DNA from: Escherichia phage vB_EcoM_VR26
Direction: 5' to 3' (one strand)
Sequence record: NC_028957.1
Length of the DNA stretch: 64,000 nucleotides
Shown piece after piece: positions 46,701 to 59,203 of this stretch. The notes beneath the pieces were generated by a model. That model saw only the letters and a list, made by a program, of their open reading frames with translations. It searched no databases and was not told the DNA's origin. Positions within the stretch are counted from its first letter, which is position 1; the number at the start of each line of letters is the position of its first letter. A program made the translations under genes and the position numbers.

Positions 46701-47797
46701 TCACTGCTCCTTCCACCGGAACGACAATGACTATTGGCGATACGACTAACGTATTGACATTAAACACTGCCTCGGGCAATGTTGCTGTATTGAACAACCT
46801 TAGTGCCGGAAACGATGTTCAAGCCAAAAATAATTACGTTCTAAACGGTCGTACTATTGCAACCACGACGGGTGAAGCTTCTGGTGCAACTCTGGCCCTG
46901 GGTGATAACTCGCAGAATTTAGTGCTCAAAACTCTTGATGCTGGTAATATCATAGCAAATGGTGGCGGTGCATTTAAAGTCCTGACCGAGAAAAACGCTG
47001 TTGAGATTGTTGATAGAAACTTTGTTAACCAAGCGGGCGATACAATGTCTGGTATGCTCCGTGTGAATGCTCCGGTCCGTGTATTCGGTACGAAACCAAG
47101 TCTTATCGCACAAGCCCCAACTGCGGAAACTGTTGGCTTCTGGTCTGTTGATATTAATGATGAACCGACTTACAGTCAGTTCCCCGGTTATTGGACAATG
47201 ATTTTAAAACGTCAAATAAACATTGATACCGTTCAAACTAAACCGGCCGGTATGTCCGATGAAGTTTGGAATAGTTCTGGTTGGTTAACAGAAAACGGCA
47301 AGAATGGTAAATTACCCGGTGGACAAGAATTGGGTCCCGATGGACAACCGATTACACCACAGCCTCCGGTTGTACCAATTCATTATCGTAAACCAGATGG
47401 AACTTTAGGTGACCCAGTTAGTACACCAGAGGCTCCTATACGTGGTACATGGTTTGACTATTCAGTTCGTGACAAACAAATTAAATATCCTGGTACATTG
47501 ACTCAGTTTGGTAATACGCTGGATTCATGCTATCAAGATTGGGTTTGCTATCCTACTGGATTAAACGGTGGTACTATTCGTTATACTCGCACATGGCAGA
47601 AAAATAAATCAGCCTGGACGACTTTCGCAATGGTTTACACCGCGGATAACCCTCCGTCTGCAGAGGATGTTGGTGCATTACCGGCGGACAACACAACAAT
47701 GGGGAACTTGACCATTCTTGATTGGTTACGTATCGGTAACGTGCGTATCATCCCAGACCCGACCACTAAATCCGTTAAGTTTGAATGGGTTGAATAA
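43784..47797 (+). CDS. 34: long tail fibre proximal subunit gp34
   Basis: 1337 aa; repetitive fibre protein; synteny 34-35-36-37. Confidence 0.9.
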   Translation: MADILKPAFRATSGLDAAGEKVINVAKADYSVLSDGVNVDFFIEENTVQQYDATRGYKKNFAVINDNRIWVAQRDIDAPAGAFTPQYWLATRTDPKWETVASPTRQLNSGEFIAVDSAASFTTFTLPTNPVDGDTIVIKDIGGNVGYNEIKVQSSNVPGGGNQKIVRFGNQYSEVLITKPFSYNMLIFSNRLWQFWEAGNEERGIRVEPSTGRFHAQAGDFIMRRYTTGAPITFILPKYANQGDIVKSVDIDGLGPTFHLMVETFDSSSSLGKAGQHQMEFRTTGDGFFVYNAAEKLWYVWDGDFKTRLRVIRDNVKLLPNESVIVFGEDNSTPATINIDLPTDVLQGDIVKIALNYLRKSQTVNIRAAAGDKIASDIKLLQFPKRSEYPPDSTWVLVDSLTFNGNISYTPVIELSYAEDKLSGTSYWVVAQNVPTVERVDSLNDSTRARLGVIALANQTQANVDHENNPEKELAITPQTLANRVAKENQRGIARIATTAQVNQNSDFAFVDDVIISPKKLNERTATETRRGLAELATQQETDAGVDDTTIITPKKLQARQGSESLSGIVTYVPTTGATPATSRELNGTNVYNKNTTNLVISPKALDQYKATYTQQGAVILAVESEVIAGTSQSGWPNAVVTPEMLHRKTALDSRIGLIEIATQTETNAGTDYTRAVTPKTLNDRKASETLTGIAEIATQSEFDTGTDDTRISTPLKVKTRFNNTARTSVNALSGLVETGTLWDHYNLNILEANETQRGTARLATQGEVNTGTDDKTIVTPLKLMSKKATENAEGIVRIATNAEATAGTSKVLAISPSALKYIAQTETTWEASETLRGFVRLSSGTATSAATTTTGAGFTYENGVYTPDPSKLVNYVKSGYAVSPYELNRVLQNFLPINAMAVNAEKLDSLDSTQFIRRDIAQTVEGVLTLTKQTNLSAPVVSTSTAVFTDVTAGTSTFGTVNVVNGTNKWKITAPSTGTTMTIGDTTNVLTLNTASGNVAVLNNLSAGNDVQAKNNYVLNGRTIATTTGEASGATLALGDNSQNLVLKTLDAGNIIANGGGAFKVLTEKNAVEIVDRNFVNQAGDTMSGMLRVNAPVRVFGTKPSLIAQAPTAETVGFWSVDINDEPTYSQFPGYWTMILKRQINIDTVQTKPAGMSDEVWNSSGWLTENGKNGKLPGGQELGPDGQPITPQPPVVPIHYRKPDGTLGDPVSTPEAPIRGTWFDYSVRDKQIKYPGTLTQFGNTLDSCYQDWVCYPTGLNGGTIRYTRTWQKNKSAWTTFAMVYTADNPPSAEDVGALPADNTTMGNLTILDWLRIGNVRIIPDPTTKSVKFEWVE

Positions 47798-47805
47798 GAG
47801 GTAAT

Positions 47806-48936
47806 ATGGAAAAATTTATGGCAGAGTTTGGACAAGGATACGTCCAAACGCCAGTTATATCAGAAAATAATGCCGTTAAATTTAAAATGAGTATAGCAGG
47901 GAGCTGTACTCTTTCCACGGTGAAATCGTATATCAAATTTCAGGACGAACGAATCGGGCCAACTACTTTTGGTAATGGTCTGACTCTATTGGAAATTGAT
48001 ACAACTACGAATAAAATTGTTAACACGAAAAACTATTCATTAACCAGCACACACGATGCAATCAGTCAGGCATTAATTACCTTTGTGGAATCTGTTCCAG
48101 CCGGAAGATTAATTGCATTTATTTCTTCCGGTAAGCTAAATGCTTCACAGACATTAATTGACTGGATGCGATTAAAGGGGTCAAAGGCATTCCCTGAAAA
48201 ATGGCTAATCGACAAAGTTGACACATCTTACTCGGCATTCTATATCTCTGGTCGAAATGTAATCGTCTCCGAGCATGTAAAATATAACGATGGCAAATTT
48301 GTTGAAGATGTATCCACCCCATTAGAAGTTGTTTATGATACCTTTAGTGATATAGGAGCAACAGGCTATCCTGTGCGCATAACGGAAGACGAGAGCACGT
48401 ATTCATCAACAGGTGATGGAACACCAGCCACAATTAAAAGGTTCCCTAGAGAGGACCTGGTGACTCCTATGGCTGGCTACAACCTTTTGCCTTTGGATAT
48501 GCTTTATCTGAAGTTTCAGATGTCATTTGATGCTGCTCTGAAAGCCGCTGGGACTGTAAGGACTTCGGTTCGATTCTTTAAAAGCCCCAGCACCTCTCCT
48601 ATATCAAATACAAACATCGATATTGCAACAAACGTTCCAGCCGGTGCATGGGCGAGTTTTGAAAGATATGTCGAGATTCCAGCAGGTGCCGATGGTTTTA
48701 CAGTAGTAACGTCAAGAACTGTAGCTGTGGGAACTGGGTCAATACGTAATATTGTTATTGGTGAGATAACCAGAGACGACTCTGCGTTCAAACCAGCTGA
48801 ATTTGGTGTCAACGGCATAAGGATGTCATATGCAAACGATGCAACAAATACAGGCAATACAATTGTAACATTCCCTGATGCACAAGCTCCGCGTGCAGGC
48901 AAGATTTATGCAGCCGAACTTCGAGAAAAACAATAA
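47806..48936 (+). CDS. 35: long tail fibre hinge connector gp35
   Basis: 376 aa; size and position as T4 gp35. Confidence 0.85.
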   Translation: MEKFMAEFGQGYVQTPVISENNAVKFKMSIAGSCTLSTVKSYIKFQDERIGPTTFGNGLTLLEIDTTTNKIVNTKNYSLTSTHDAISQALITFVESVPAGRLIAFISSGKLNASQTLIDWMRLKGSKAFPEKWLIDKVDTSYSAFYISGRNVIVSEHVKYNDGKFVEDVSTPLEVVYDTFSDIGATGYPVRITEDESTYSSTGDGTPATIKRFPREDLVTPMAGYNLLPLDMLYLKFQMSFDAALKAAGTVRTSVRFFKSPSTSPISNTNIDIATNVPAGAWASFERYVEIPAGADGFTVVTSRTVAVGTGSIRNIVIGEITRDDSAFKPAEFGVNGIRMSYANDATNTGNTIVTFPDAQAPRAGKIYAAELREKQ

Positions 48937-48959: not shown

Positions 48960-48967
48960 TATAAATA
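48960..48967 (+). promoter_or_regulatory. late promoter motif TATAAATA upstream of gene 36
   Basis: Exact TATAAATA 37 nt upstream of ATG. Confidence 0.5.
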
Positions 48968-49659: not shown

Positions 49660-52600
49660 ATGGCTACTTTAAAACAAATACAATTTAAAAGAAGTAAAAT
49701 TGCTGGTGTCCGCCCAACCCCAACTGTATTGGCTGAAGGTGAACTCGCAATTAACTTGAAAGACCGCTTGTTATTCACAAAGGATGATACCGGAGCTATT
49801 ATTGACCTTGGTTTTGCTAAAGGTGGCAATATCGATGGTAACGTTATCCATAAAGGCAATTACAACCAAACGGGCGATTATACCCTCAATGGCACATTTA
49901 CCCAGACAGGTAATTTTAATTTAACCGGAATTGCTCGTGTAACTCGTGATATTATTGCTGCAGGTCAGATAATGACTGAAGGTGGCGAACTGATTTCTAA
50001 GAGCGCTTCTACTTCACACCTTCGTTTCTTTGATGGCGATGACCGAGAACGCGGTATTATCTTTTCGCCAAATAATGCGGGTCTTACCAATCAAGTAGTT
50101 AATATTCGTGTCCAAGACTACGCCGCTGGTAGCGAAAGCACCTACGCGTTTTCAGGCAGTGGCCTATTTACTTCACCAGAAGTATCAGCATGGAAATCTA
50201 TTTCTTCGCCACAAATTCTTACCGATAAAGTTATTACCAACGGCAAGAAGGCAGACGATTATGACATCTATTCGTTGGCTGACAACACTCCTTTAACCGA
50301 AAGCGAAACAGCAATTAATCATCTTCGTGTCATGCGTAATGCCGTTGGTTCTGGTATTTTCCATGAAGTTAAAGATAATGATGGAATAACTTGGTATGCT
50401 GGTGATGGGCTAGAGGCCTATCTATGGTCGTTTACATGGTCTGGTGGATTGAAAGCGGGTCATTCCATTTCTATAGGCACCCCAGGCGGCCCCAAAGGAT
50501 ATTCCGAATTAGGAACGGCTTCAATTGCCCTCGGTGATAATGGCACCGGATTTAAATGGCATCAAGATGGATATTTTTTTACGGTAAACAACGGTACAAA
50601 AACTTTCCTTTCCGGTCCGGCGGAAACTACTAGTCTTAGAAAAATGGTTATGGGTTATTCTGTAAATGGTACTGATTTGACAACGCCGCCGGAAGAAAAC
50701 TATGCCCTGGCAACTGTAGTTACTTACCATGATAATAACGCCTTTGGTGATGGTCAAACCCTTTTAGGATATTATCAAGGTGGTAATTACCATCACTATT
50801 TCCGTGGTAAAGGTACTACAAACATTAACACCGCCGGCGGATTGTTAGTTACTCCAGGTAATATTGATGTTGTTGGTGGTTCGGTTAATATCGACGGACG
50901 TAGTAATGCTTCTACTGTGCTTTTTAAAGGAAATACTATAGGACATAGTTCAGTTGATAATATAGAGCTCAAAGTTTGGGGCGATACTTTTGCTACTGTA
51001 GGTGGTACTCGCAAAAACGTAATGGAAACATCTGATGCTACCGGCTGGATGCAGTATATTCAGCGAACTACAGCAGGTAAAGTCGAATCTTATTTAAACG
51101 GCGCGATGAACATCGTCGAAGGATTAAATGTAGGTCAAGATGCATCCTTAAAACGCAATCTGTACGTTTCCAATGAAATTAAAGTTCGCGGTTCTAGTGG
51201 ACTTCGTATTTGGAACGATAAGTACGGCGTTATTTTCAGGAATTCAGAAGACCAACTACATATTATTCCAACTAATATTAACCAAGGCGAAAGTGGCGGA
51301 TTAGGTCCATTACGTCCATTGAGTATTACATTAGACACTGGTCTGGTTAAAATTCCCAATTTGGCAGCTGGCCAGGTTTCTTTTAGTAGTACAGGCGTAT
51401 TGGAATTTCCCGCCGGTAATGGCGGCTCTTATGCCAACCAGAACACGGCTAAAGCCCCACTGTATCAAACATTAGGTTCGTCGTCGGCTCAAGCATTCTA
51501 TCCTATTACTAAGCAGAAAAATACTGTTTCGAATGTAACTGTTACTCAAGGTATGGACCGAACTACAAGTGAATACCGAATTGTTGCTCAAGGCGATTTG
51601 CTTGGTGATGGTGATGCTACTGGATTAAAATACTGGCGCTTTACTAAAGAAGGTCACTTCATAACTCAGAGCCGCTTATATGCTGGTACAGCATTCTTGA
51701 ACACTGACGGTAACATTGCTGGTTCTATCTGGAACAAATATTCTGGTTCCACTAACCTTGATGCAGCAGTGAGTACTCGTGTCGGTAAAAGCGGTGATAC
51801 AATGACCGGAAAATTGACTATTGAGGCTCCGGGTGATGCATTAGTATTGAGAACAACCACAGGTAATAGCTCGCATATCCGTTCTGATGTAGGTGGTACA
51901 GGTAACTGGTATATAGGCAAAGGCGGCGACGACAATGGTCTAGGTTTCTACAGTTACGCTACACAAGGTGCTATATACATAACAAATAATGGCGAAATAT
52001 CTCTCTCTCCTCAAGGTCAAGGAACATTTAATTTTAACAAAGACCGTATTCATATAAACGGTACACAATGGACTGCACACCAGGGTGGTGACTGGGCCAG
52101 TCAATGGCGTCAAGAAGCTCCTGTGTTTGTGGATTTTGGTAATGTCGGTAATGATAGTTATTATCCTATTATTAAAGGAAAATCTGGTATTACTAATGAA
52201 GGTTATATATCTGGTGTAGATTTTGGTATGCGCCGTATCACTAATACATGGGCCCAAGCTATTATCCGTGTTGGTAACCAGGAAAACGGTCATGACCCAC
52301 AAGCTGTCTACGAATTCCACCATAGTGGTACTTTTTATGCCCCTGGGTTGCTCAAGAGTAGCAGGGTATCAGCAGGTGGTGGTGACCCCGCCTGGTTAGG
52401 GCCGTGTATTGTTCTTGGCGATAATGACACAGGTCTAGTTTGGGAATCTGATGGTGTCTACAACCTTTATGCAAATGGGCAAGGTGTATTCAGTATTCGT
52501 GCTGGACTGGCACAAACATATGCTAACGTAGCGTTAAACGTCAACGCTGGGATGTATGTTCGAGATAACATTGATGTTAACGACGTTTATATCCGTTCTG

Positions 52601-52917
52601 ATATTCGTTGTAAGTCAGAAATTAAGCTTATTAAGAACGCTCAAGAGAAATCTAAACTCTTAGGCGGCTATACTTATCTGCTTAAAAACTCTGTTACAGA
52701 CGAAGTTAAACCATCTGCAGGTTTAATTGCTCAGGAAGTTCAAGAAGTATTACCTGAACTTGTTTCTGAAGATAAAGAGACCGGCTTGCTTCGTTTGAAC
52801 TATAACGGTATTATCGGTTTAAATACTGCTACTATCAACGAGCATACTGACGAAATCAAGGAATTGAAATCTGAAATTGCCGAATTGAAAGCATTAATTA
52901 AATCATTGATAAAATAA
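49660..52917 (+). CDS. 37: long tail fibre distal subunit gp37 with C-terminal intramolecular chaperone (peptidase S74-like) domain
   Basis: 1085 aa; last ~109 aa (YIRSDIRCKSEIK…GLIAQEVQEVLPELV…LNYNGIIGL…, nt 52588-52914) match the auto-cleaving intramolecular chaperone signature. Confidence 0.9.
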   Translation: MATLKQIQFKRSKIAGVRPTPTVLAEGELAINLKDRLLFTKDDTGAIIDLGFAKGGNIDGNVIHKGNYNQTGDYTLNGTFTQTGNFNLTGIARVTRDIIAAGQIMTEGGELISKSASTSHLRFFDGDDRERGIIFSPNNAGLTNQVVNIRVQDYAAGSESTYAFSGSGLFTSPEVSAWKSISSPQILTDKVITNGKKADDYDIYSLADNTPLTESETAINHLRVMRNAVGSGIFHEVKDNDGITWYAGDGLEAYLWSFTWSGGLKAGHSISIGTPGGPKGYSELGTASIALGDNGTGFKWHQDGYFFTVNNGTKTFLSGPAETTSLRKMVMGYSVNGTDLTTPPEENYALATVVTYHDNNAFGDGQTLLGYYQGGNYHHYFRGKGTTNINTAGGLLVTPGNIDVVGGSVNIDGRSNASTVLFKGNTIGHSSVDNIELKVWGDTFATVGGTRKNVMETSDATGWMQYIQRTTAGKVESYLNGAMNIVEGLNVGQDASLKRNLYVSNEIKVRGSSGLRIWNDKYGVIFRNSEDQLHIIPTNINQGESGGLGPLRPLSITLDTGLVKIPNLAAGQVSFSSTGVLEFPAGNGGSYANQNTAKAPLYQTLGSSSAQAFYPITKQKNTVSNVTVTQGMDRTTSEYRIVAQGDLLGDGDATGLKYWRFTKEGHFITQSRLYAGTAFLNTDGNIAGSIWNKYSGSTNLDAAVSTRVGKSGDTMTGKLTIEAPGDALVLRTTTGNSSHIRSDVGGTGNWYIGKGGDDNGLGFYSYATQGAIYITNNGEISLSPQGQGTFNFNKDRIHINGTQWTAHQGGDWASQWRQEAPVFVDFGNVGNDSYYPIIKGKSGITNEGYISGVDFGMRRITNTWAQAIIRVGNQENGHDPQAVYEFHHSGTFYAPGLLKSSRVSAGGGDPAWLGPCIVLGDNDTGLVWESDGVYNLYANGQGVFSIRAGLAQTYANVALNVNAGMYVRDNIDVNDVYIRSDIRCKSEIKLIKNAQEKSKLLGGYTYLLKNSVTDEVKPSAGLIAQEVQEVLPELVSEDKETGLLRLNYNGIIGLNTATINEHTDEIKELKSEIAELKALIKSLIK

Positions 52918-52947
52918 TAAAAGGGCCTTCGGGCCCTGGAGGTTTAT

Positions 52948-53748
52948 ATGGCAGTAGTAGGAATTCCTGGTTGGATTGGGACTTCAGCCGTCGCTGAAAC
53001 CGGGCAAAGATGGATGTCAGCCGCTTCGAGGGAACTTCGTTTAGGAAACCCTTCATGGATGTCTCAATTCGCCGGCCGCTCAAGAGAAATTATTCACACA
53101 CTCGGAGCAGACCATAACTTTAACGGGCAGTGGTTTAGAGACCGTTGCTTTGAAGCCGGTGGCGCACCTATTGTGTTTAACATCACAGGTGATTTAGTGT
53201 CTTATAACAGGGACGTTGCGTTATTCTTTATGAATGGAGATACTCCTAACGAATATGTTACTTTGAATATTCATGGTGGAGTTCACATGTGGGGACGCGG
53301 TGGACATGGAGGTTGGACCCACTCCGGCGGCGACGGCAACGGGCAGTGGGGTGGTGATTGTATTGTTAACCATATAGGCACCCGTTTACGTATATGGAAC
53401 TATGGTGTTATCTGTGGTGGTGGTGGCGGCGGTGGCGGTATCGCTTATCGTCCTCACTCCGGCGCTAACTGGCAGGATATTGGTGGCGGTGGTGGAAGAC
53501 CATTTGGCCCAGGCGGAGGTGGTGCTTATTCAGGAGGTGCCGCTTCTTATGGGGGCCCGGGTGGTGGATATAACTACGGTAACGCTCACTCTGGGCAGGG
53601 TGGCGATGCTGGTGCAGCCGGACAAAACGCCTGGTCTGATGGCGGGAAAGTGCTTAAAGTGGGTGTTGGAGGTGGTTCTGGTGCAGCTGTTGCAGTAACA
53701 GCTCCTGCATGGGGAGCAACAGGTACTATCTATGGACCATGGCTATAA
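52948..53748 (+). CDS. 38: tail fibre adhesin gp38, T2-type with glycine-rich motifs
   Basis: 266 aa; conserved N-terminal gp37-attachment region [24 protein letters not shown]…[46 protein letters not shown]; poly-Gly motifs separating variable segments. Confidence 0.88.
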
Positions 53749-53759
53749 TACTTTTGCGC

Positions 53760-53767
53760 TATAAATA
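53760..53767 (+). promoter_or_regulatory. late promoter motif TATAAATA upstream of holin gene t
   Basis: Exact TATAAATA 19 nt upstream of ATG. Confidence 0.5.
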
Positions 53768-53785: not shown

Positions 53786-54439
53786 ATGGAACCAAAAGTA
53801 GGAATCTCAATACCCGACCTACTTTTTGGACTTCTTGATAGAATTTTTAAAGATAATGCGACCGGGAAAGTTGTCTTTTCCCGGGTACTAGTTATTGTTC
53901 TATTATTTTTAATGGCGGTAATCTGGTATAAAGGTGATGCAATTTTAGATGCGTATAGGGATGCTTCATATGCCTCGTACACGGAAATGATAAGGCAAGA
54001 CCAAGATAACAGATTTAAAATTGCAGCTATCGAGCAAATCCAGATAGTCCATTCATCAAGCGGAGCAGACTTTACAGCGATATATTCCTTCAGACCTACC
54101 AACCTTAACTACTTTGTGGATATGGTTGGCTACGAAGGGAGATTGCCTGATACAGTTGACGAGAAAAATTTGGGTGGGTTTCCAATAGATAAGACTTCAG
54201 CGGAATATTTGGCGGGGGTTAATGGTAATTATTTTGAATCCAGTAATGAATTTGTATTCTTACCAACAAAGAAAAAAAGCAGCTTCGCATATATGTTCAG
54301 CTGCCCATTCTTTAATCTAGAGAACGTTTACGCAGGTACAGTTTCTTTGTATTGGTACGTTCAGAAACCAGACCTTGGTTTTGATAGGCTTTCTGCTATG
54401 TGTGGACAAGCAGGTCGTACGCTCGGGCGTACACGTTAG
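53786..54439 (+). CDS. t: holin T
   Basis: 217 aa; …DLLFGLLDRIFKDNATGKVVFSRVLVIVLLFLMAVIWYKGD… single TM near N-terminus and large periplasmic domain; matches T4 T as recalled. Confidence 0.9.
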   Translation: MEPKVGISIPDLLFGLLDRIFKDNATGKVVFSRVLVIVLLFLMAVIWYKGDAILDAYRDASYASYTEMIRQDQDNRFKIAAIEQIQIVHSSSGADFTAIYSFRPTNLNYFVDMVGYEGRLPDTVDEKNLGGFPIDKTSAEYLAGVNGNYFESSNEFVFLPTKKKSSFAYMFSCPFFNLENVYAGTVSLYWYVQKPDLGFDRLSAMCGQAGRTLGRTR

Positions 54440-58812: not shown

Positions 58813-58953
58813 TTACCATATCAGTGAATGTACTGCCATTATAGCATCAGAAATAAAAAGCACAACCTGCACTAATGCAAACATAACTCCATAATACAAC
58901 GCTACCAATAAGGCAGCAAGGGCCAACGAGTAGCCCAAGATTTTCTTAATCAT
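58813..58953 (-). CDS. candidate 46-aa small membrane protein (ac/stp region)
   Basis: Manually translated [36 protein letters not shown]…; ATG overlaps upstream stop; ends 5 nt before gp52 ATG. Confidence 0.35.
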   Translation of the reverse strand: MIKKILGYSLALAALLVALYYGVMFALVQVVLFISDAIMAVHSLIW

Positions 58954-59135
58954 TTATTAATAGCCGATTCAAGAAATTTGACTAAGGCATCCAGTACAAA
59001 CCATGTGCAAATAAATCCTGCAAAAAGAGTACTTGGGACCCATACACCTGTAGCAAAAAGAGTCACAGCAACGATAACAGCTACGAGCCAGATAAAAGTA
59101 AAAACTGTTTGCATATTTTCCTCAAGGGCGTCCAA
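58950..59135 (-). CDS. small membrane protein (ac/stp region)
   Basis: 61 aa; two predicted TM helices ([21 protein letters not shown]…[11 protein letters not shown]). Confidence 0.5.
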
Positions 59136-59203
59136 AGACGCCAGTTAATTTCAGATTATGACGATGCCATTGCATCACATGTTCGTTATGGAAATTACTC
59201 ATA

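Follow-up and report, generated by a model that had tools for sequence, protein, structure and literature searches.

[quoted passage not shown] In the explanation preferred here, to which we assign a probability of about 0.9, a gp38 monomer caps the tip of gp37 and acts as an Ox2-like adhesin directed at OmpA, and its gene is a mosaic. The gene was analysed within a window of 64,000 nucleotides (64 kb) of the genome NC_028957, in which gp35, gp37, gp38 and the holin are each identical, by exact look-up, to the annotated VR26 protein. VR26 gp38 is already public and annotated (AIZ02902.1 / YP_009214102.1), with the RefSeq label "tail fiber protein; host specificity" on YP_009214102.1; it is a member of a thoroughly characterised family, and its identification is no discovery.

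Domain architecture and fold of gp38

The open reading frame of gene 38 runs on the plus strand from an ATG start to a TAA stop and specifies 266 residues plus stop. Two overlapping open reading frames, at 53402-53698 (plus strand, 98 residues, rich in valine and alanine) and 53221-53373 (minus strand), were taken to be by-products of the GGN repeats read in other frames. In a megablast search of a phage collection, gene 38 matched 103 records, none of them at more than 95% identity, and the nearest genome among the listed matches was that of Gaprivervirus TH15 (94.8% nucleotide identity over 16 kb). The tblastn alignments ended at residue 178, the low-complexity filter masking the glycine-rich half of the protein; full-length comparisons were built from individual phage loci and a protein search. 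The coordinates of all features are collected in Table 1.

The N-terminal attachment domain, composed of residues 1-42, is recognised by the Pfam family Gp38_N (PF21721; E-value of 1.6e-20, 73.2 bits with a cut-off of 25), and residues 47-266 match the full profile, positions 1-218, of the family GP38 (PF05268; E-value of 1.1e-64, 218.7 bits with a cut-off of 25). The attachment domain retains the tryptophans W9, W22 and W37, the first two of which are conserved in at least 90% of 61 sequences; three such tryptophans, including their role in docking on the gp37 tip, have been described for S16 gp38 (PMC6851490). A conserved N-terminal attachment region had been proposed in a preliminary description of this DNA, made from the nucleotide sequence alone, and the profile match and the tryptophans bear it out.

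Only two proteins of solved structure match gp38 by sequence, namely the receptor-binding domain of PP01 gp38 (PDB entry 9V85, E-value of 6.7e-60) and S16 gp38 in the gp37-gp38 tip complex (PDB entry 6F45_D, E-value of 2.2e-49). The AlphaFold2 model, built with 61 sequences, has a mean pLDDT of 86.7 and a pTM of 0.80. Low confidence is confined to the first ~17 residues, which, by analogy, would normally pack against gp37. A Foldseek search of the PDB with the model retrieved the same two structures, 9v85 (E-value of 1.5e-25, TM-score of 0.87 normalised to the target) and 6f45_D (E-value of 4.9e-23, TM-score of 0.81 normalised to the target), and no other match at an E-value below 2.8. DSSP assigns coil throughout the glycine-rich parts of the model. 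The fold is predicted with good confidence to comprise a β-helix and a polyglycine-II (PGII) sandwich, in agreement with both crystal structures.

S16 gp38, which was solved together with gp37 (PDB entry 6F45; Dunne et al. 2018), likewise possesses three domains, comprising an attachment domain with three tryptophans, a β-helix and a PGII sandwich, and VR26 gp37 is homologous to S16 gp37 in its tip and S74 domain. The two gp38 proteins are 43% identical overall. Their loops differ and are longer in VR26, in which two glycine-rich excursions leave the β-helix (residues 116-136 and 157-245, with 50 glycines in 110 residues); these comprise 21 and 89 residues, as against 18 and 77 in S16 gp38. 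The PP01 receptor-binding domain (PMC12892980) is the best structural match, with 57% sequence identity. Its loops A-E map one to one onto VR26 gp38, in which A, B and E exceed their PP01 counterparts in length.

Glycine accounts for 26% of the whole protein and for 36% of residues 117-266. The per-column entropy over 123 homologues resolves conserved glycine blocks at residues 116-122, 135-136, 157-164, 179-190, 205-207, 216-219 and 241-245, with hypervariable stretches between them at residues 123-134, 165-178, 191-204, 208-215 and 226-240. Glycine tracts separating variable segments had been described beforehand, and the tracts then quoted are present: a run of eight glycines (G8), a 14-residue motif and a GPGGG motif. 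The alternation is far beyond chance and is no accidental low-complexity run, as is evident from the E-values for Pfam GP38 (1.1e-64) and for the two PDB sequence matches (6.7e-60 and 2.2e-49). A mismatch with the architecture of characterised gp38 proteins, which the preliminary description had named as a point that would count against its own assignment, was looked for, and the architecture agrees with that of S16 and PP01 gp38.

Residues G116, R117, G118, G119 and G121 of the first motif, and G182, G183, P185, G187 and G190 of the 14-residue motif, do not vary among 61 sequences. PGII helix 3 of S16 gp38 (151-GGGGGGGG-158) is the exact counterpart of the G8 tract in the alignment, and the longest glycine run in this zone measures 7-9 residues in 106 of the 123 homologues; a run of five glycines (G5) precedes RPFG in 111 of the 123. 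Loop A, which in PP01 corresponds to W119-I124 (PMC12892980), is 3-5 residues longer in VR26 gp38 than in the T6, PP01 and T2 types. Mapping from PP01 places loop C at approximately residues 190-195 and loop D at approximately residues 208-215.

Table 1 Features of gene 38 and its surroundings, numbered from the first nucleotide of the window
Feature	Residues or codons	Nucleotides	Strand	Basis
Gene 37, distal long-tail-fibre subunit	1085 aa	49660..52917	+	Pfam Peptidase_S74
Intercistronic hairpin AGGGCC-UUCG-GGCCCU		52922..52937	+	Between g37 stop and g38 Shine-Dalgarno
Gene 38, receptor-recognising adhesin gp38		52948..53748	+	ORF, Pfam GP38 and Gp38_N
N-terminal gp37-attachment domain	aa 1-42	52948..53073	+	Pfam PF21721
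Recombinant core of g38 (by sequence comparison)	codons 43-254	53073..53709	+	Identity to TH15, Fisher p = 1.5e-28
β-helix and PGII sandwich, receptor-binding region (predicted)	aa 47-266	53086..53745	+	PF05268, AlphaFold2 model, Foldseek
First conserved glycine-rich motif (GRM1), GRGGHGG	aa 116-122	53293..53313	+	Invariant columns, entropy
Variable segment / distal loop A	aa 123-134 (mapped loop A ~122-134)	53314..53349	+	PP01 mapping, entropy, indel map
G8 tract	aa 157-164	53416..53439	+	Codons GGT GGT GGT GGC GGC GGT GGC GGT
Variable segment / loop B	aa 165-178	53440..53481	+	PP01 mapping; near-invariant in Ox2-like clade
Conserved 14-residue motif	aa 179-192	53482..53523	+	Invariant columns
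Variable segments / loops C and D	aa 193-215	53524..53592	+	Entropy, PP01 mapping
GPGGG motif interrupting loops C/D	aa 203-207	53554-53568	+	Sequence
Variable segment / loop E	aa 226-240	53623..53667	+	Entropy, PP01 mapping
Holin gene t		53786..54439	+	Pfam Phage_holin_T 1.7e-67

Fibre locus and tip assembly

The gene order around gp38 is the canonical g35-g36-g37-g38-t. The S74 intramolecular chaperone domain of gp37 comprises residues 980-1035 (nucleotides 52597-52764; Pfam Peptidase_S74 E-value of 7.7e-12), and an alignment with the S16 gp37 tip (6f45_A, E-value of 6.5e-31) covers the C-terminal 171 residues of gp37. With the profile, the fold, the alternation of glycine-rich and variable segments and the g37/t context all in place, the initial assignment of gene 38 to the T2-type adhesins is correct. 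The hinge connector gp35 (47806-48936) shows a sub-threshold match to the Pfam family ILEI (26.1 bits with a cut-off of 27), and its homologue in one related phage record is labelled 'ILEI domain-containing protein'.

The gene name and the genomic slot after g37 are common to VR26 gp38 and T4 gp38, a tail-fibre assembly chaperone that is described as unrelated in sequence to the adhesin gp38 and as no component of the virion (PMC6851490, PMC3157838). Several records of close homologues carry the label 'distal long tail fiber assembly catalyst', as would suit a T4-type gp38 that assists gp37 assembly, is absent from the virion and has no adhesin function. These labels are carried over from T4, and such an identity for VR26 gp38 is almost inconceivable: the protein matches the adhesin families PF05268/PF21721 and the virion-tip structures 6f45 and 9v85, VR26 gp37 has an S74 intramolecular chaperone of its own, and the sequence of S16-type gp38 is described as unrelated to that of T4 gp38 (PMC6851490).

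For gp38 as a tip adhesin, the structural mechanism is drawn from the work on S16 and PP01 (PMC6851490, PMC12892980) and from Trojet et al. (PMC3157838). The C-terminal S74 chaperone of gp37 (about 106 residues) would aid trimerisation and would then be cut off, as in the rest of the family. Each long tail fibre would carry one gp38 monomer on its trimeric gp37 tip, a 3:1 stoichiometry taken from homologues, with the three-helix N-terminal domain and its tryptophans (W9, W22 and W37) plugging into the gp37 tip in the manner of the S16 structure. The two glycine-rich excursions would pack as PGII helices into a rigid sandwich, the far end of which would display the five variable loops as the receptor-binding face. 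This face would first make reversible contact with OmpA of E. coli, at its extracellular loops, and LPS would be engaged afterwards by the short fibres (gp12). Adsorption by way of VR26 gp38 is proposed by analogy with its homologues.

The hairpin between g37 and g38 is followed directly on its 3' side by the g38 Shine-Dalgarno sequence GGAGG (52938-52942). Of the other T-even-type phages that were checked, among them Ox2, RB32, MX01, IME540, P479, AV111 and T2, 10 of 10 have a hairpin at the corresponding position; because the stem sequences differ from phage to phage, the pairing is maintained by covariation. Folded in a 56-nucleotide context the hairpin has an unremarkable z-score of -1.2, so that its conservation stands out and its energy does not. 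It scores terminator-like on the minus strand, and may be an element of mRNA stability or processing.

The motif TATAAATA, the T4 late-promoter consensus, occurs at 48960-48967, ~37 nucleotides before g36, and at 53760-53767, ~19 nucleotides before t. The motif search found no TATAAATA before g38, which suggests that g38 is co-transcribed with g36-g37. The motif count in the 64-kb window is nine, with 4.8 expected. No tRNA genes were found in the window by ARAGORN.

Receptor prediction from the specificity domain

The variable segments had been put forward as the place to look for host-range prediction, through their alignment with adhesins of known receptor specificity, and this alignment gives a clear answer by singling out the Ox2-like OmpA clade. 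Over the specificity domain, taken as residues 117-266, VR26 gp38 is 84.7% identical to the adhesin of LHE83 (receptor OmpA), 82.0% to that of RB32 (OmpA and LPS), 80.7% to that of AV119 (OmpA, type 1), and 80.0% to those of both Ox2 (OmpA) and FL08 (OmpA, type 1). The OmpA dependence of these five phages was established by experiment (PMC3157838, PMC10987938, PMC12032242). Identity is only 45% with PP01 (OmpC, of O157) and likewise 45% with S16 (Salmonella OmpC), 42% with M1 (OmpA) and T6 (Tsx), and 40% with Bp7 (LamB/OmpC), T2 (FadL/OmpF) and FL18 (OmpA, type 2); the adhesins for Tsx, OmpC, OmpF/FadL, LamB and "type 2" OmpA are all at most 53% identical to VR26 over this domain. Over residues 157-266 the homologues are either at least 74% or at most 52% identical to it, and because of this gap the membership of VR26 gp38 in the Ox2-like ('type 1') OmpA clade, judged by sequence identity, is unambiguous.

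The gp38 proteins of Ox2 (X05675; Henning's group), FL08/AV119, RB32 and LHE83 belong to the same length class as that of VR26 (263-267 residues), share its glycine-rich motifs and have a nearly identical loop B, IAYR[PV]HSGA[NK]WQDI. They differ from it in the attachment domain, which is 50-80% identical to that of VR26 in Ox2, RB32, FL08 and AV119 and 100% identical in the Dhakavirus LHE83. About 25-30 substitutions in residues 117-266 separate VR26 gp38 from the Ox2-type adhesins of labelled receptor, and its C-terminus reads GPWL rather than GPRV.

The type 1 residues predicted to contact OmpA are R165, H167-A170, R181 and D217 in FL08/AV119 (Lutz et al. 2025, PMC12032242), and these are kept in VR26 gp38 as R168, H170-A173, R184 and D220. 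FL08 V166 corresponds to P169 in VR26, as it does in the OmpA users Ox2 and RB32, and the predicted FL08 contact R262 corresponds to W265, a position at which the OmpA user LHE83 also has tryptophan. Every residue of the VR26 specificity domain, those of the loops included, also occurs in another of the 45 members of the Ox2-like clade. OmpA is the predicted primary receptor of VR26 gp38 and probably the correct one, on the grounds of clade membership, the kept contact residues and the lack of any clade-unique specificity residue.

Retargeting of the adhesin by a few loop substitutions would lead to a different receptor, or to OmpA together with another, with Tsx, OmpC, OmpF, FadL, OmpW, LamB or LPS as the candidates. 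One loop substitution can indeed switch the receptor, as exemplified by RB68 Q206L, the Ox2 host-range mutants and the pair PST and T6 (PMC3157838; bioRxiv 10.64898/2026.04.02.716166). In RB51/RB68 gp38, Q206L moves porin usage from OmpF to OmpW (bioRxiv 10.64898/2026.04.02.716166), and the Ox2 mutants are known to have an altered receptor specificity (cited in PMC12892980). VR26 differs from every labelled OmpA user at 15-20% of the specificity domain. RB32 is also LPS-dependent. Adsorption of LHE83 is still about 50% on a BL21 ompA deletion, which suggests that a second receptor may serve some of the Ox2-like adhesins. Against this, OmpA is the receptor of all five characterised clade members, loop B is conserved along with the predicted contact residues, identity to every non-OmpA type is at most 53%, and the specificity domain holds no residue peculiar to VR26 among the 45 clade members; we therefore regard a receptor other than OmpA, or additional to it, as unlikely.

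The published record was consulted for direct information on the receptor. The paper on biocontrol with VR26 (PMC8307508) makes no mention of receptor, adsorption, gp38, OmpA or tail fiber, and neither the VR phages nor Ox2 appear in the main text of a preprint reporting a receptor screen of 255 phages. A search for literature on the gp38 receptors of WG01/QL01/MX01 gave nothing useful.

Residue 91 (nucleotides 53218-53220) is alanine in place of proline, changing DVPLFF to DVALFF. All 44 remaining members of the Ox2-like clade have P91, as does more than 90% of the family, and A91 is the sole residue of VR26 gp38 that no other clade member has; either a real adaptation or a sequencing error could account for it. 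The core of the VR26 gene as a whole is common to no sequenced phage, the best match having 94% amino-acid identity (ABTNLS3), with 82-98% nucleotide identity per patch. That the mosaic of loop alleles, together with P91A in the β-helix, gives VR26 a receptor range unlike that of the characterised Ox2-type adhesins is distinctly improbable. Such a range might involve OmpA loop variants (STEC O26:H11), a second receptor, or efficient adsorption at the low growth temperatures of VR26.

Mosaic structure of gene 38 and host range

The DNA identity between VR26 and TH15 is 96.4% over the 3' end of g37 and codons 1-42 of g38, falls to 82.4% over codons 43-254, and rises to 97.9% downstream through t (Fisher test on core versus flanks, p = 1.5e-28). 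The gp38 proteins of the two phages are still 92.9% identical, and many of the differences in the core are synonymous, which favours replacement of the core by a related allele over local divergence. At informative sites the core is TH15-like at codons 90-116, resembles the Mosigvirus AV111 at codons 84-89 and 144-149 and over most of codons ~156-238, and is unlike either at codons 43-78 and 250-254.

The attachment domain has a different distribution. It is 100% identical to that of TH15, LHE83, ABTNLS3, PSD2001 and UGJNEcP4, which share the 3' end of g37, and 50-56% identical to that of AV111/P0002. Nucleotides 52548-52870 of g37 show 90-100% identity in TH15, LHE83 and ABTNLS3, which have the identical gp38 N-terminus, and 30-60% identity in Ox2, RB32, MX01, IME540 and P479, which have the other N-terminal type. 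Among Gapriverviruses with the identical N-terminal domain three cores are found: Ox2-like (VR26 and TH15), PP01-like (PSD2001) and Bp7-like (UGJNEcP4). On these comparisons gene 38 is a recombination mosaic, in which the 3' end of g37 and the attachment domain of g38 appear to travel as one unit and the receptor-binding core as another, the latter evidently exchanged among Gaprivervirus, Dhakavirus, Mosigvirus and Tequatrovirus. The modular design of g37/g38 was described by Trojet et al. (PMC3157838), and the exchange is no new phenomenon.

Other patches of divergence from TH15 were observed in the window. In g37, positions 50150-52550 have 42-87% DNA identity to TH15 with flanks of 97-100%, and VR26 gp37 is a singleton in protein clustering at 90%; this is a second, larger recombinant or divergent patch of the fibre locus. 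Two further patches, at 47148-47547 and 58948-59147, have 67-72% identity to TH15 amid sequence of 97-100%.

The runs of GGN codons had been suggested in advance as candidate sites of recombination, and the proposal that the coding runs of glycine-rich motifs are preferred crossover points, at which single variable segments are shuffled, is an old one (Tetart et al., cited in PMC3157838). In its favour, the nearest relative of the core alternates between TH15-like, AV111-like and unique, and some of the switches lie near the first glycine-rich motif (codons 116-122) and the G8 tract, which is suggestive. The placement of these internal switch points is unreliable, given that it depends on two or three reference sequences and is subject to wobble noise at GGN codons. 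Relative to TH15, the two sharpest boundaries fall where the attachment domain ends, at codon ~42, and in the conserved C-terminal end, at codons ~255-263, with the whole specificity domain lying between them. The laboratory chimeras of Trojet et al. agree with this, the entire set of hypervariable segments (HVS) having been exchanged in 14 of 14 cases (PMC3157838). The suggestion may hold for some internal switches near two of the glycine tracts and fails for the two main exchange points; mini-recombination sites at the motifs are a tentative and rather doubtful explanation of the mosaic.

A second suggestion concerning the same runs was slippage, by which the GGN tracts would generate length variants of the adhesin in the manner of a contingency locus. 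Underlying the G8 tract is an imperfect triplet repeat, which Tandem Repeats Finder reports weakly (period 3, 8.7 copies, 82% matches, score 31); the longest perfect run of one unit is (GTG)4. Synonymous glycine codons, however, occur in a mixture (GGT/GGC/GGA/GGG = 30/16/16/7), and no homopolymer exceeds G5. The specificity domain comprises 150 residues in 44 of the 45 sequences of the Ox2-like clade, with no gaps in glycine runs, and the differences in glycine-run length across the family are substitutions of glycine by alanine or serine within segments of fixed length. Insertions and deletions between clades fall in loops (residues 126-130, 168-173 and 230-232, and insertions after residues 190, 199 and 210), outside the G8 and G5 runs. 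Moreover, deletion of the glycine-rich motifs GRM2, GRM3 or GRM4 from T6 gp38 gave no viable phage (PMC3157838). Slippage at the glycine-codon runs was rejected on these comparative data, namely the fixed lengths within the clade and the location of indels in loops, and as a source of adhesin diversity it is extremely improbable.

Gp38 is the primary host-range determinant of VR26, whose use in the biocontrol of STEC O26:H11 at low temperature has been proposed (PMC8307508). The prediction of OmpA from sequence is useful for composing cocktails of phages with different receptors, for anticipating resistance by loss of ompA, and for engineering. Knowledge of gp38 adhesins in general is unchanged by the analysis of VR26, which adds only the prediction of an OmpA (type 1/Ox2-like) receptor, the description of the mosaic and the negative result on slippage. 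The fibre locus of VR26 is a clean textbook example of modular exchange.
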